Assembly (NCBI GenBank): GCA_964645535.1
Contig: CAZYCQ010000024.1
Span: forward strand, 18,270-43,353
Origin: an uncultured archaeon
GTDB taxonomy: Archaea; Asgardarchaeota; Heimdallarchaeia; Heimdallarchaeales; Kariarchaeaceae
Direction of reading: 5' to 3'
DNA length: 25,084 nt
In this document: positions 7,770 to 18,591 of the stretch, in pieces
Numbering within the stretch: the first letter of the stretch is position 1
How the letters are laid out: the number at the start of each line of letters is the position of its first letter
Notes under the pieces: generated by a model
Seen by the model: only the letters and a program-made list of their open reading frames with translations
What the model was told of the DNA's origin: nothing
The model's database searches: none
Made by a program: the position numbers and the translations under genes

Positions 7770-8918
7770 TCATTGGATTGAGATGATTTCCTGATACATT
7801 GAACTTGTTTTTTCCAATTCCGCGATTTGCGAAGTGATTTCTTCCATTTCCGAAGTGATTTCCTCGATTGTGGCTGCAACCTCCTCAGCAGAAGATGAAG
7901 TCTCCTCTGCAATGGCCGCGATTCCTTCAGCTTCGTTTCGGATTTCATTGAATTGATTTTCAAAGGTTTCAACTGCTGATTTGATAACAGAGCCCATTTG
8001 AGAGAGGTTACTGTTTGTTTCTTCTGCAAACTTGCGTATATTCTCTGCGACTACAGAAAAACCTCTCCCGTAATCACCAGCCCTTGAAGCTTCAATTCCA
8101 GCATTCAATGCAAGAACATTGATTTTCACGGCAATATCACTGATCTTTGAAGTATTGTTTTGTATTGTTTCAGTCACTCCTGAAAGAGATTCGGAGGCTA
8201 AATGCAATTGTGAGAGAATTCTACCCAAAGCATCAGCCTGATCACCTGCTCCACTTGCCATGGATCCAGCAATATCGGTTACACCTTCCATTCCGGACTT
8301 GATTTCTGAAGAGGCTTCTGCCAAATTAGTACTTGTTTGATGGATTGTTTCAGTAAGTGAATGAAGTCCAGAAATCAGTTGCTCTGAAGTTGCGACCATG
8401 TCATTCAATAAAGTAACTGAACGACCAAAGACACTGTCAGAGATTAATTTTTCATCATTGATACGATAGGAGAAATCACCATCTCTGACGTGTGCTGAAA
8501 TCTTCTCAACCTCAAATTCAAATGATTTGAAGGAGTTCAGGATGTTAGAAAACACCCCTAGAATGATTGTATACAACCATGCCAAGGGGAACAACCATAA
8601 ATGGTCAACAACATTCATGGCAACGAGAGCATTGAACAACTGATTCAGGTATTGCAGGGCAATCAACACCATGAGGATGCGACCAATAGTCTTGAATTTG
8701 AAATCCATGAATTTAACATCATTTCTGCTTTGGAGATAGGTCAGATAGATCAAAGCGATTACAATGATAAAGATGATGTTTCCCTCTGCCCCTTCAAAAG
8801 TGAAGGTCACTGCATCGGGCAGGAAAAGGGAAACCACAAGAGGGAATAGAAAATAAAGAATTACTGAAAGTTCCGCAAACTTACCGATAGAGGGGAGACG
8901 ATAAGTTTTGTGTTCCAT
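7770..8918 (-). CDS. mcp: Methyl-accepting chemotaxis protein (about 4 TM, HAMP-like segment and short signalling domain)
   Basis: Hairpin-tip motif INVLALNAGIEASRAGDYGRGFSVVAENIRKFAEET, HAMP-like VRDGDFSYRI, and methylation-type motifs AAIAEETSSS and SSSAEEVAAT. Confidence 0.95.
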   Translation of the reverse strand: MEHKTYRLPSIGKFAELSVILYFLFPLVVSLFLPDAVTFTFEGAEGNIIFIIVIALIYLTYLQSRNDVKFMDFKFKTIGRILMVLIALQYLNQLFNALVAMNVVDHLWLFPLAWLYTIILGVFSNILNSFKSFEFEVEKISAHVRDGDFSYRINDEKLISDSVFGRSVTLLNDMVATSEQLISGLHSLTETIHQTSTNLAEASSEIKSGMEGVTDIAGSMASGAGDQADALGRILSQLHLASESLSGVTETIQNNTSKISDIAVKINVLALNAGIEASRAGDYGRGFSVVAENIRKFAEETNSNLSQMGSVIKSAVETFENQFNEIRNEAEGIAAIAEETSSSAEEVAATIEEITSEMEEITSQIAELEKTSSMYQEIISIQ

Positions 8919-8927
8919 ACCAAAACA

Positions 8928-8943
8928 TATCGTTTCAACGATA
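8928..8943. promoter_or_regulatory. Inverted repeat just upstream of the MCP start
   Basis: TATCGTT-TC-AACGATA has perfect 7-bp arms and lies 10-25 nt upstream of ATG 8918. Confidence 0.55.
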
Positions 8944-9059
8944 AAAAGGCAACTATCGTATATTTTCGAAATATTGTGGGAAACATAAAATAAGACTCCA
9001 GACCTATGGCGATTTTTGTGGATAAAAAAATAAAACAGGAAAAATTGTTACAAAGGCAT

Positions 9060-15709: not shown

Positions 15710-16570
15710 GTGCAAGAAGACCTCTATTTTGCTATTGAAGAACTTATTGGAAGAGGGTTGTACGACAAGGCATTGAAGCTTGCAGAGGACAAGTCTTTGA
15801 ATGATCCGGTTTTTTTTCTTTCCGTCAAATCCCGAATAATGGAGAAAAAGGGAGATTTCCGAAAGGCAATGCAATTTGCGACGGAAGCACTTTCAAATCT
15901 TCCACAGACACATCCTGCAATATGGTTTCCACATTTGGTATATCTTTATGCCATGTGGAGAATGGAAGATTATGAGAATGCCTTGGAACACTTCATGACT
16001 ATCCCGCTCAAAAGCTTTCCCCATCTAATACAGGCAAGGTTCCACAATATTGCAGGTCTATTGTATTGGAGCATAGGAAAGAAAAACCAAAAAGAAGGAC
16101 CAGAACATTACAGAAATGCATTGAAACATCACCAGATAGCCCTAGCACTTCGAAAGGGGAATCCTGTTGAAGAGGCGTTTTCCCTGAACAATATAGCCAA
16201 CACCTTACTGTCATTAGGAAAGGGGGAAAAGGCGATGGAATATTATTCAAAGGCAAAAAAAATACGTGAAGAAAGAGGGAGGACTTCTGAAGTGGCTACC
16301 ACCCTTAGAGATATTGGAAGATGTCTCATGACGATGGGAAGATTTGATGAAGCAAAAAAAACGTTCCTGGAAGTATGGAAAATTCAAAAAAACCTAGGGA
16401 ATCCCAATGATCTCGCAAAAATTTTGCTGAGCTTGGGGGAAGTTGAGAAACGAGTAGGCAATGATCCGAACCCATTTCTTGAAAAGGCAATGAAGTTGGC
16501 AAAAGCAACCGGAAATGAAATTCTTGAAAAGAAGATACGAGAAGTTTTAGGAAAAGATCAAACCGATTGA
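15710..16570 (+). CDS. Tetratricopeptide repeat protein
   Basis: Repeated TPR-like units: ARFHNIAGLLY, AFSLNNIANTLLSLG..EKAMEYY, ATTLRDIGRCL..MGRFDEA and AKILLSLGEV. Confidence 0.85.
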   Translation: MQEDLYFAIEELIGRGLYDKALKLAEDKSLNDPVFFLSVKSRIMEKKGDFRKAMQFATEALSNLPQTHPAIWFPHLVYLYAMWRMEDYENALEHFMTIPLKSFPHLIQARFHNIAGLLYWSIGKKNQKEGPEHYRNALKHHQIALALRKGNPVEEAFSLNNIANTLLSLGKGEKAMEYYSKAKKIREERGRTSEVATTLRDIGRCLMTMGRFDEAKKTFLEVWKIQKNLGNPNDLAKILLSLGEVEKRVGNDPNPFLEKAMKLAKATGNEILEKKIREVLGKDQTD

Positions 16571-17443
16571 GAGCAAAAGGCTGTATATAAGGGAAAGTCG
16601 AGCAGTTCCAGCAAGGGTGGAGTTAAGTTTGGGCAATTTTGTTTCAGTCCACAAGTCCTTTGCTAATTTAATGGCAAATGGAAATGCAAGAATTGGAAGA
16701 AAAATGGCAACGGAATACATTTCAACACTGAAGAGGTAAATTGGAACCAAAAAAGGGGAGAAAATCAGGAATGCATAATAATATCGGGTTCCTGCCTTTC
16801 CCAAAATATGCGAAAAGGTTTTCTTACCAGCTGCCAAATCAAGATCATAGTCACGATAATTGTTGACTACAAGGATAGCGGTAATAAGAAAACCCACGGG
16901 GATTGAGAGAAGAAACACAATGGGGGAAAGGGTTCCAGAAATGACATAATAGGTTCCAGGGATGGCGATCAATCCAAAGAAAATAAATACGAACAGATCT
17001 CCCAAACCAAGGGCACTCAGGGGATAGGGGCCACCACTGTAGAGAATTGCAAAAATAATTGAACTCACACCAATTGCCAAGATTGGCCATCCACCCACGT
17101 AAATTAGATAGAGTCCAATCATTCCGGATATGAAAATATTCACTAGGATACCGATCTGCATTTCTTTTTTTGAGAGCAACCCTGCTTGAAGTGCCCTAGT
17201 TGGTCCGACCCGTTTTTCGTTATCGATTCCTTTTATGAAATCAAAATAATCGTTGGCAAAATTTGATTCAATTTGAAGGGAGATGGCACCCAAAAGAGCC
17301 AAAACGGTGACAAGGAGATTAACAAAACCATCATGGAAGGCAGCTGCGGCGCCTACCAAAACAGGACCCACTGCGGCAAGAAGGGTTTTGGGGCGAGCTG
17401 CAATTATCCAAGCCCTCTTTTTGGAGATGTCGGCAACACTCAT
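16547..17443 (-). CDS. menA: 1,4-dihydroxy-2-naphthoate polyprenyltransferase (MenA, UbiA family)
   Basis: AWIIAARPKTL, NFANDYFDF.KG.D, YSGGPYP..GLGD and NNYRD..D..AGKKT. Start is ATG 17443 or 17464. Confidence 0.93.
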   Translation of the reverse strand: MSVADISKKRAWIIAARPKTLLAAVGPVLVGAAAAFHDGFVNLLVTVLALLGAISLQIESNFANDYFDFIKGIDNEKRVGPTRALQAGLLSKKEMQIGILVNIFISGMIGLYLIYVGGWPILAIGVSSIIFAILYSGGPYPLSALGLGDLFVFIFFGLIAIPGTYYVISGTLSPIVFLLSIPVGFLITAILVVNNYRDYDLDLAAGKKTFSHILGKAGTRYYYAFLIFSPFLVPIYLFSVEMYSVAIFLPILAFPFAIKLAKDLWTETKLPKLNSTLAGTARLSLIYSLLLSIGLIFS

Positions 17444-17565
17444 ATTCTTAACTTTGAATGGCATTTGAAAGACTTTATTATTGAATTCTGAGAGAATACA
17501 AATAATTAGAACATACCCGAATGAAACGTCAAAAAGCTTTTCAAACATAAGATGGAATTCATTAT

Positions 17566-18591
17566 GTGGGTTCGAGGATTGGAATATTAACGAAATTGAA
17601 AGATCGTTTTTCTGCTCTTGAAGAGTTTGCAAAACGAAGAAACTTTGAACCGTCCGAATTTAACCCACAAACCACCAATGAGTTTGATCTATTGATTGTT
17701 GACGTTGATGCAATAAATAGCAAATTCAGCAAATCAATCAAAAGCATTACAGAGCCAGTGCTTTTTGTTTCATTTCCAGATACTAAAAAAACAGGAGGCA
17801 AAGCAAAAGTCCCGGAAGATCTCTTGGATACTCTTTTCAAAGCAGATTTTGTTGAAATCGAGATAAAGGATGGAAAGATCTATCCAGAATTTATTGTTCA
17901 CTTCAAGATCGGAGTGTTACTGAAATTAAAAAAGGGAACACAAACTTTGAGAATTCGAGAAGGAAAGAGCAAAAAAGAAACCCCCCTTGTAGAAAAAGCA
18001 AACTTCCAGAAAAAAATTGATGCAAAATCAGCCCTAGTGGTAATTGGATCAAGTGCAGGGGGACCGGGAACACTTGTTAAGTTGTTTTCTCAAATTAAGA
18101 AACCAACACCACCCCTTGTCATTGTTCAGCACATTACGACAACCTTTGCTGAAACTTTGGCAAACCGATTGAATAAGGTCTCTTCAGTGAAGCTAAAATT
18201 GGCAAGAAATGGAGATCTGCTTCAAAACAATTGTGCATATCTTGCCCCTCCAGAAACACATCTTGAGTTTGAACAGATTGGAAACAAAGTGAAGATCATA
18301 TTATCTGACGGTCCTAAAGTCAATTTTGTCAAACCCGCAGTTGACATCACGCTTTTCTCAGCAGCAAGACTGAAAGGGATCTATCCAATATCCATAATTT
18401 TGACAGGAATGGGAAGTGACGGCAAAGAAGGATCTAGGATAATCAAACGAGCGGGGGGAACTGTAATTGCATTAAATGAAGAAGATTCAGTTGTTTTCGG
18501 AATGAACCGGTCAGTCATAGAGGCAAATCTAGCAGATTTTGTGGTTTCCCTTGATCAAATCCCAGGGTTATTGAGAAAGTTGACATATTAA
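17566..18591 (+). CDS. cheB: CheB methylesterase with a degenerate N-terminal receiver-like domain
   Basis: Catalytic motifs IGSSAGG, IVQH and LTGMGSDG, plus KPAVDITLFS and SVVFGM. The N-terminus keeps DLLIVD but lacks the acidic DD pair and the KP motif. Confidence 0.92.
   Translation: MGSRIGILTKLKDRFSALEEFAKRRNFEPSEFNPQTTNEFDLLIVDVDAINSKFSKSIKSITEPVLFVSFPDTKKTGGKAKVPEDLLDTLFKADFVEIEIKDGKIYPEFIVHFKIGVLLKLKKGTQTLRIREGKSKKETPLVEKANFQKKIDAKSALVVIGSSAGGPGTLVKLFSQIKKPTPPLVIVQHITTTFAETLANRLNKVSSVKLKLARNGDLLQNNCAYLAPPETHLEFEQIGNKVKIILSDGPKVNFVKPAVDITLFSAARLKGIYPISIILTGMGSDGKEGSRIIKRAGGTVIALNEEDSVVFGMNRSVIEANLADFVVSLDQIPGLLRKLTY

Follow-up and report, generated by a model that had tools for sequence, protein, structure and literature searches.

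The DNA analysed here (the window) is a stretch of 25,084 nucleotides, part of contig C24 of an archaeal genome. It holds a compact cluster of chemotaxis (Che) genes. A gene for a methyl-accepting chemotaxis protein (MCP) and a small gene of no known family are read divergently from a row of five genes, which encode a single-domain CheW, a protein with three CheW domains (called the poly-CheW scaffold below), a CheY, a CheA and a CheC; a CheB gene follows at some distance (Table 1). We consider it probable that the window carries the core of a second, rapidly evolving pathway for chemosensory signalling, which one family of Heimdallarchaeia possesses alongside an ordinary F1-like system. Gene calls were made by a Pfam scan of all long open reading frames (ORFs) in the window, and every gene named in an initial annotation of the sequence was confirmed in its place. 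That annotation had also pointed out that CheR, CheD, CheF and archaellum genes are absent from the window. This is correct, and it is equally true of the other 18.3 kb of the contig, which were scanned too; the contig stops where the window stops.

Table 1. Features of the Che locus. Positions are those of the window; aa, amino acids.
Feature	Position	Strand	Evidence
MCP, 382 aa	7770-8918	-	Pfam MCPsignal 5.2e-24
Unknown protein, 124 aa	9060-9434	-	no Pfam or NCBIfam family
CheW, single-domain, 148 aa, divergent	9641-10087	+	Pfam CheW 2.7e-14, 53 bits
Poly-CheW scaffold, 658 aa	10104-12080	+	Pfam CheW, structure models
CheY, 121 aa, single-domain response regulator	12090-12455	+	Pfam Response_reg 2.6e-29
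CheA, 594 aa, P1-P2-P3-P4-P5 layout	12460-14244	+	Pfam HATPase_c, P2, CheW/P5
CheC-type CheY-P phosphatase, 204 aa	14256-14870	+	Pfam CheC 1.2e-05
Acyltransferase, TPR protein, UbiA prenyltransferase (no evident Che role)	14876-17632	-, +, - (in this order)	Pfam
CheB methylesterase, 341 aa (2.7 kb downstream of the operon)	17566-18591	+	CheB_methylest 2.6e-49

The genome amounts to 3.62 Mb in 176 contigs and is 89.4% complete. The nearest CheA loci among named genomes are those of Candidatus Heimdallarchaeota metagenome-assembled genomes (MAGs), and the names found on homologues are Heimdallarchaeota, Kariarchaeaceae and Hodarchaeales. The genome encodes RadA/Rad51, a eukaryote-type actin (C62:2912-4015; Pfam Actin, 455 bits) and a gelsolin protein of two domains (C2:108764-109273), the latter two away from all Che loci. 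Given the relatives, the names on the homologues, the actin and the gelsolin, the Asgard origin that had been thought probable holds, and the assignment is to the Heimdallarchaeia.

In the window CheA, the HATPase_c, P2 and CheW/P5 domains scored over the Pfam cut-off and Hpt below it, and no Pfam match to H-kinase_dim (P3) was found. Among 8 CheA orthologues, His44 (HSxKG motif, here LHSMKG) never varies, and neither do the residues of the ATP-binding boxes N, G1, F and G2. The protein has the P1 histidine, the ATP-binding P4 and the CheW-like P5 of a chemosensory kinase, and the locus supplies the other parts of such a pathway, namely a CheW adaptor, an MCP receptor and a CheY with its acidic pocket and phosphorylatable aspartate.

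Among 5.8 billion clustered proteins, this CheA has eight close relatives (39-86% identity, 437-1103 bits), and the next match falls to 171 bits. Its distribution in the class was examined in 83 species genomes (14 of high quality, several in a single contig), 12 of them from its own family and 71 from others. A profile of the divergent CheA matched at 520 bits or above in 8 of the 12 family genomes, and a ninth has a 166-aa fragment at a contig end (243 bits). The 71 other genomes stay well short of 520 bits, the best score there being 319. CheA of any kind is present in 30 of the 83 genomes, and all nine genomes that have the divergent form hold at least one further CheA-like match. Models of known CheAs fit the window protein less well than the genome's other, canonical CheA: the NCBIfam haloarchaeal CheA model, which is the best hit of the window protein and served as a proxy for its relation to euryarchaeal F1 CheAs, gave 204 bits for the former and 401 for the latter (cut-off 950), and the E. 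coli-type model 145 and 272 bits. The next relatives of the canonical Heimdallarchaeial CheAs are CheAs of Bacillota, at 32-35% identity.

A tree of 52 CheA sequences was computed under LG+C20 with a quick search; it comprised 9 divergent, 15 canonical Heimdallarchaeial and 27 bacterial or taxonomically unnamed rows. The nine divergent CheAs form one clade, which has a support of 100 and a stem 2.26 changes per site long; it joins the canonical CheAs of Heimdallarchaeia and is separated from the bacterial rows (support 98). In an approximately unbiased (AU) test on a 24-row LG+G4 data set, a grouping of the divergent CheAs with the canonical CheAs of their own genus was rejected (log-likelihood difference 51.3, p-AU 0.0005); the grouping was chosen on inspection of the first tree, and the test is subject to long-branch effects. 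A recent duplication within the genus is rejected by the same test. On our reading, the protein is an old paralogue that a single family has retained, or else it was acquired from a relative that has not been sampled.

The initial annotation had described CheY as canonical and its partners as deviant, and this description is borne out. In CheY, residues D8, D9, D53, T81 and K103 are invariant across 7 orthologues; the best NCBIfam model is CheY_Halo, with 118 bits where the cut-off is 200. Across the operon loci of the relatives, CheY is 66-92% identical, compared with 39-67% for CheA, 49-74% for CheC and 22-43% for CheW. The two canonical CheY paralogues are 32-49% identical to the window CheY, and its alpha4-beta5-alpha5 region is near-invariant inside the clade, unlike that of canonical CheYs. 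Such strong conservation, together with a clade-specific face, hints at a dedicated and conserved partner. The CheW scored 53 bits to Pfam in the window and 113 bits for the genome's other CheW. In CheC, which reached 8e-20 with the NCBIfam model CheC_Thtogales, below the cut-off, the first active site (motif E-x2-N...P) is intact in 8 of 8 sequences. The asparagine of the second site has become serine in all 6 divergent copies and is kept in both canonical ones.

The CheB gene encodes a methylesterase with an intact catalytic domain, in which the motifs GSSAGG, VQH and GMGSDG provide the contexts of the Ser, His and Asp of the enzyme. Its first 157 residues gave neither a Response_reg nor any other Pfam match, nor an hhalign match to a CheY profile, and Atlas feature scores for this N-terminal domain were at most 0.84. 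On these comparisons the domain is not recognisable as a receiver, though it may be a degenerate one. Full-length matches to this CheB were found in G044 and G045 only, and a partial one in G043.

The scaffold consists of three CheW-fold domains (approximately residues 1-138, 200-330 and 378-516) separated by helical or disordered linkers, and of a C-terminal beta-barrel of ∼100 aa (∼560-658). AlphaFold models of the whole protein and of residues 378-658 (pLDDT 73 and 82, respectively) show beta-rich domains, helices and disordered linkers. Each of the three domains was recognised in a different way, and the label 'multi-CheW' given to the protein at the outset is upheld. Residues 202-291, in the second domain, are a strong Pfam CheW match. 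The first domain gave a weak Pfam CheW match below threshold (residues 32-82, E 0.0082), and is linked to the second by hhalign (86% probability, E 4.7e-06, 51 columns). Residues 378-516, on which Pfam is silent, match CheA-P5/CheW structures with Z-scores of 13.1 (rmsd 3.1, 133 aligned residues), 12.8 and 12.7, and Foldseek E-values for the same residues are as low as 2.7e-05. The C-terminal domain had no hhalign match to the second CheW domain and no convincing structural match from which to assign a fold, the best being RemA at Z 4.2; we claim no novelty of fold for it.

When 1.84 billion representatives were searched exhaustively with an HMM of the scaffold, 21 proteins came out at E ≤1e-30. 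Near-full-length matches to the scaffold profile were given by 15 representatives, among them the truncated P0131 and three with lower scores (117-230 bits). The remaining proteins are bacterial-type multi-CheW proteins that match over one domain. Names were available for 5 of the 17 listed members of the scaffold cluster, and the three taxon names among them are Candidatus Heimdallarchaeota or Candidatus Kariarchaeaceae. The family also has longer members, of 867-1,755 aa, with extra CheW domains. The window protein, which the databases call simply 'chemotaxis protein CheW', is the first row of the family alignment and belongs to this Heimdallarchaeial set. It appears to represent a previously undescribed poly-CheW family.

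The order CheW-scaffold-CheY-CheA-CheC is found whole in four loci of relatives (L034, L036, L037 and L043); in a fifth, L035, a contig end cuts within CheA. CheA identity to the window copy is 39-67% across the relatives' loci. In L037 a CheD gene lies immediately upstream of the divergent operon. In the same locus (L037:6322-9520, genome G036) the operon is followed by genes for a PAS-HisKA-HATPase-receiver hybrid kinase and a ParA/MinD-like ATPase. ParA-like proteins place chemoreceptor arrays in some bacteria.

The genome's Che genes are not confined to the window. A canonical CheA, with all five Pfam domains, is on C87. On C4, a CheD gene is found beside a second CheC gene, and near the contig end are a CheB with a receiver domain, two CheYs and a CheW of 316 aa. 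A single CheR is encoded on C16 (L003:6982-8376, 464 aa), and 14 MCPs are scattered over the genome. Pfam covers residues 65-308 of this CheR, and its C-terminal extension of ∼155 aa has no assigned domain. Two proteins of 223 and 622 aa, encoded beside CheC-CheD on C4, were considered as output candidates; both are polytopic membrane proteins, and only the former recurs in the Che region of G046. In that genome, from the same genus and 93% complete in 10 contigs, one contig carries the canonical genes in a loose group and another the divergent operon.

The cluster cannot be read as a self-contained system without CheR and CheD: CheR, CheD, a second set of CheA, CheW, CheY, CheB and CheC, and the 14 MCPs are present elsewhere in the genome. 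Because CheR and CheD are both encoded there, their lack is a property of the window and not of the organism. CheC and CheD are associated as in F1 systems, with CheC in the operon, CheD on C4, and CheD upstream of the operon in L037. The initial annotation's proposal of a lineage-specific chemosensory class survives in part: high-scoring matches to the divergent CheA occur only in its own family, and all scaffold members with a taxon name are Heimdallarchaeota or Kariarchaeaceae.

By hydropathy, residues 10-127 of the window MCP include about four hydrophobic segments, and the protein has no periplasmic ligand-binding domain. Its signalling hairpin measures 99 residues from tip to C-terminus, or ∼14 heptads per arm. 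Most of the 14 MCPs of the genome resemble it in size (350-400 aa), likewise begin with three or four membrane helices and lack a periplasmic domain. In 13 of the 14, 92-106 residues separate the tip from the C-terminus, i.e. ∼13-15 heptads per arm, all heptad counts being estimates from length and not from heptad-class models; the 14th, on C123, is interrupted by an in-frame TGA. By this length estimate, they are not the long 44-heptad receptors which, according to Alexander and Zhulin and to Wuichet and Zhulin, are reportedly associated with F1.

CheF (PF04283) was found neither in this genome nor in any of the 83 genomes of the class, and the positive controls matched in 3 archaea. Archaellin (PF01917) had no match in this genome and was over the cut-off in 1 of the 83; ArlD/E (PF04659) had no match in this genome, and its positive controls matched. 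G046 has neither CheF nor archaellin. The CheF, archaellin and ArlCDE components of the archaeal chemotaxis-archaellum system are thus not found with the cluster. The one genome with archaellin, G038, is a family member with both CheA types, and has a real archaellum operon (L045, G038:C52:1-6100) with archaellin, three small ORFs, a KaiC-like ArlH, ArlI and ArlJ, which may have been acquired horizontally. The remark that the cluster has no visible motor link is therefore right as to the absence of CheF, ArlD/E and archaellin, but this absence is a trait of the whole class, canonical systems included, and does not distinguish the cluster.

Two other candidate targets of CheY-P are encoded in the genome, the first being a type IV filament locus on C6 (C6:27000-38100; L031:3193-14054). 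Its ATPase (515 aa, with a PilB3_C tail) scored 409 bits to the ArlI/FlaI model, the cut-off of which is 550; it is accompanied by two half-size T2SSF platform proteins and three pilin-like ORFs with class-III-signal-like N-termini, and a peptidase A24 gene on C13 completes the type IV filament core. Orthologues of the ATPase, 54-94% identical, are present in 79 of the 83 genomes, with or without Che genes. The second is the actin cytoskeleton. No cytoskeletal, longin, roadblock or small GTPase gene was found at the four Che loci of this genome or at the relatives' divergent operons. On C6 (L031:14211-15269), divergent from the filament ATPase, a 352-aa ORF with no Pfam match shows, by eye, a kinase-like catalytic-loop pattern.

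As to the neighbourhood of the operon, the acyltransferase, TPR and UbiA genes that separate it from CheB are syntenic with it inside the genus: all three lie beside the operon in L034, and the TPR and UbiA genes do so in L043 also. The 124-aa gene was considered as a part of the system and rejected, having three unlinked paralogues in the genome (C79:7101-7457, C71:3822-4187 and C39:26002-26376, none beside an MCP locus) and no homologue in the 8 relatives' loci searched. It belongs to a family of helical proteins with no known domain, and its product is probably outside the system. An overlapping 89-aa ORF (8861-9130) had no match anywhere and is probably spurious. Further away in the window are a GH31 glycosidase (1783-3831), a DUF1572 protein of the DinB superfamily and a MerB-like protein of the alkylmercury lyase family, the adjacent ORFs of which overlap (4161-5310, minus strand), and the usual MoxR-DUF58 pair, in which a MoxR-type AAA ATPase (AAA_3, AAA_lid_2) is followed by a DUF58 protein (22316-24885, minus strand).

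The following scheme could account for these observations. Short, membrane-embedded MCPs would form arrays, to which CheW and the three-CheW-domain scaffold would couple a dedicated CheA. This CheA would autophosphorylate on His44 and pass the phosphate to Asp53 of its own CheY, and CheC would strip it from CheY-P. As far as CheY-P, such a mechanism is conventional and, in view of the residues conserved, well supported. Adaptation would be carried out by the single CheR and CheD, presumably shared between the two systems, plus a CheB that would not be controlled by a receiver domain. Since the class lacks CheF and the archaellum, CheY-P should act on some other partner, and its output would most likely be a surface behaviour, exerted through the class-wide type IV filament machine or through actin-driven protrusions. 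Gene content, catalytic residues, distribution and the lack of CheF and archaellin are observations, whereas the array architecture, the sharing of CheR, CheD and MCPs and the output are inferences.

Several observations weigh against this scheme. The genome is only 89.4% complete. The operon is less uniform than the four whole loci imply: in L038, CheY, CheA and CheC are kept, and neither CheW nor the scaffold was detected upstream. Beyond the genus, no non-Che gene is kept beside the operon. CheB lies near it in two genomes only, and its membership in the system is uncertain for this reason. The tip sequence of the window MCP is that of the majority class, which lends no support to a separate array and does not show which receptors feed which CheA. 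In the phylogeny, the taxonomically unnamed row P0318, labelled canonical beforehand, was placed among the bacterial rows. The 24-row LG+G4 tree kept the divergent clade, but the support for where it stands with respect to the canonical and the bacterial CheAs is only 51, and euryarchaeal CheAs are not represented in either tree. Among sequencing runs, the operon is listed for two DNA runs of one hot-spring study, one of which may be its source, and for no RNA run. Finally, no output partner of CheY was identified.

What CheY-P does is the point on which readings diverge. By analogy with bacterial and cyanobacterial Che-like systems, it may control the type IV filament of C6, and with it pilus adhesion or twitching; we regard this as possible, if rather doubtful. 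The core set of the filament is complete (ATPase, two platform proteins, three pilin-like ORFs and peptidase A24), and, according to PMC13716822, twitching by type IV pili is the sole pilus-driven surface motility so far described for archaea. The ATPase is also present in every Che-positive genome, but this is because it is near-universal: with the ATPase in 79 of 83 genomes and CheA in 30 of 83, there is no signal of co-occurrence, and the filament appears independent of Che. No Che gene is found at the filament locus and no filament gene at the Che loci. The marks of a Tfp/Chp-like system are missing as well, as the CheA has one Hpt and no receiver, and pilus genes are not co-located with it. 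A complex prediction for CheY and the C6 ATPase, both entered as alignments, returned no verdict (score 0.00, mark 0.32) and counts neither way.

Alternatively, CheY-P could feed into the actin cytoskeleton or the dynamics of protrusions, i.e. crawling, an output that the initial annotation had put forward and that we think unlikely. The genome does have the actin and gelsolin mentioned above. Actin-driven, protrusion-based crawling is reported for the Lokiarchaeial L. ossiferum and for a Hodarchaeales isolate (PMC13716822). L. ossiferum is also described as having putative chemoreceptor arrays, in a study that reports Che proteins from 27 of 97 MAGs of Loki- and Heimdallarchaeia (PMC9834061). 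Against it, the genes for actin and gelsolin are on contigs other than those of the Che genes, no actin regulator, longin, roadblock or small GTPase accompanies the four Che loci or the relatives' operons, and the word 'chemotaxis' has 0 occurrences in the main text of the crawling paper (PMC13716822). A bolder version, in which the conserved CheY would act on actin-driven protrusions or crawling adhesion while the scaffold builds an array geometry unseen in bacteria, seems to us improbable.

An output unrelated to motility, or a modulation of the canonical pathway in which the module would serve as a phosphate sink or organise the array, is about as unlikely as an actin output. The divergent CheA never occurs without a further CheA-like match, the window has no CheR and CheD of its own, and a poly-CheW scaffold could act on array structure alone; the hybrid kinase and ParA-like ATPase that follow the operon in G036 would also fit. 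However, the module has a complete CheA-CheY-CheC phosphorelay with invariant catalytic residues, and the very strong conservation of CheY suggests a dedicated downstream partner.

That the cluster is an ordinary F1 system that steers an archaellum via CheF, the motor genes having been missed in incomplete MAGs, is very improbable indeed. This genome is incomplete and in 176 contigs, G038 shows that a family member can have an archaellum operon, and archaellum components are reported from some Asgard and Heimdallarchaeial genomes. For Asgard genomes, PMC13705601 describes type IV filament genes that lie scattered, a likely archaellum in ∼100 genomes, and ArlCDE/ArlX or CheF in 'some'; bioRxiv 10.1101/385732 reports that Heimdallarchaeia encode components of the archaellum together with the complete Che pathway. 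Yet CheF is missing from all 83 genomes, the 14 of high quality and the several single-contig ones among them, with controls that match in archaellated archaea; archaellin is found in just one, ArlD/E was absent, and the 93% complete G046 has neither CheF nor archaellin. Least credible of all is a decaying, non-functional duplicate, which the weak Pfam scores of Hpt, CheC and CheW, the missing P3 match and the lost receiver of CheB might suggest, but in which one would not expect five ORFs intact and syntenic in the four whole loci at 39-67% CheA identity, an invariant phospho-site histidine and ATP-binding boxes, and a CheY at 66-92% identity.

We therefore retain as probable a second pathway specific to one family. 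To our knowledge, no adaptor is known that links CheY to any Asgard motility device, and in the whole of this Heimdallarchaeial class CheF is absent from the 83 genomes although 30 of them have CheA. One family appears, in addition, to have evolved a second, insulated-looking CheA-CheY-CheC module with an undescribed scaffold family, and the conserved CheY of the operon offers a concrete bait for the missing output link. If an actin output were true, the closest relatives of eukaryotes would have a gradient sensor of bacterial type connected to a cytoskeleton of eukaryotic type.

Compared with known systems, the cluster is closest to the F1 class, which according to Wuichet and Zhulin reportedly covers Bacillus subtilis, Thermotoga maritima and the motile Euryarchaeota. 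It shares with F1 systems a P1-P5 CheA with P2, a CheW, a single-domain CheY and a CheC in the operon, with CheD, CheR and CheB in the genome. It differs from them by the lack of CheF, ArlD/E and archaellin, the long stem of its CheA (2.26 changes per site), the poly-CheW scaffold, the altered second site of CheC, a CheB without receiver, and 13 intact MCPs of ∼13-15 heptads per arm. With the euryarchaeal CheY-CheF-ArlCDE switch it has in common an archaeal-type CheY, but CheF and ArlD/E are absent here. The canonical Heimdallarchaeial system (end of C4 and C87 in this genome; Kariarchaeaceae, Heimdall LC_2 and Hodarchaeales) is built from the same gene families, and the mixture-model tree places its CheAs next to the divergent ones; the canonical CheA, however, has a P3 Pfam match and hundreds of relatives, whereas the window CheA has no P3 match and 8 close relatives.

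The scaffold resembles bacterial proteins with three or four tandem CheW domains in having CheW folds in tandem in one chain. More than 100 bacterial tandem-CheW proteins (460-690 aa) match one region of the scaffold, at 96-136 bits, compared with 117-1011 bits for the full-length family; the Heimdallarchaeial scaffold is unlike them in its long helical linkers and its C-terminal beta-barrel. In the literature on chemosensory genes of Asgard archaea and Heimdallarchaeia, we found no second divergent operon or poly-CheW scaffold; supplementary tables, which were outside this scope, may list the genes. The nearest described case is L. ossiferum, also an Asgard archaeon, for which the accessible text of PMC9834061 reports cheA, cheB, cheC, cheD, cheR, cheW and cheY and 15 MCPs (14 here), and names no motor; a second divergent operon or a poly-CheW scaffold is not described in that text.

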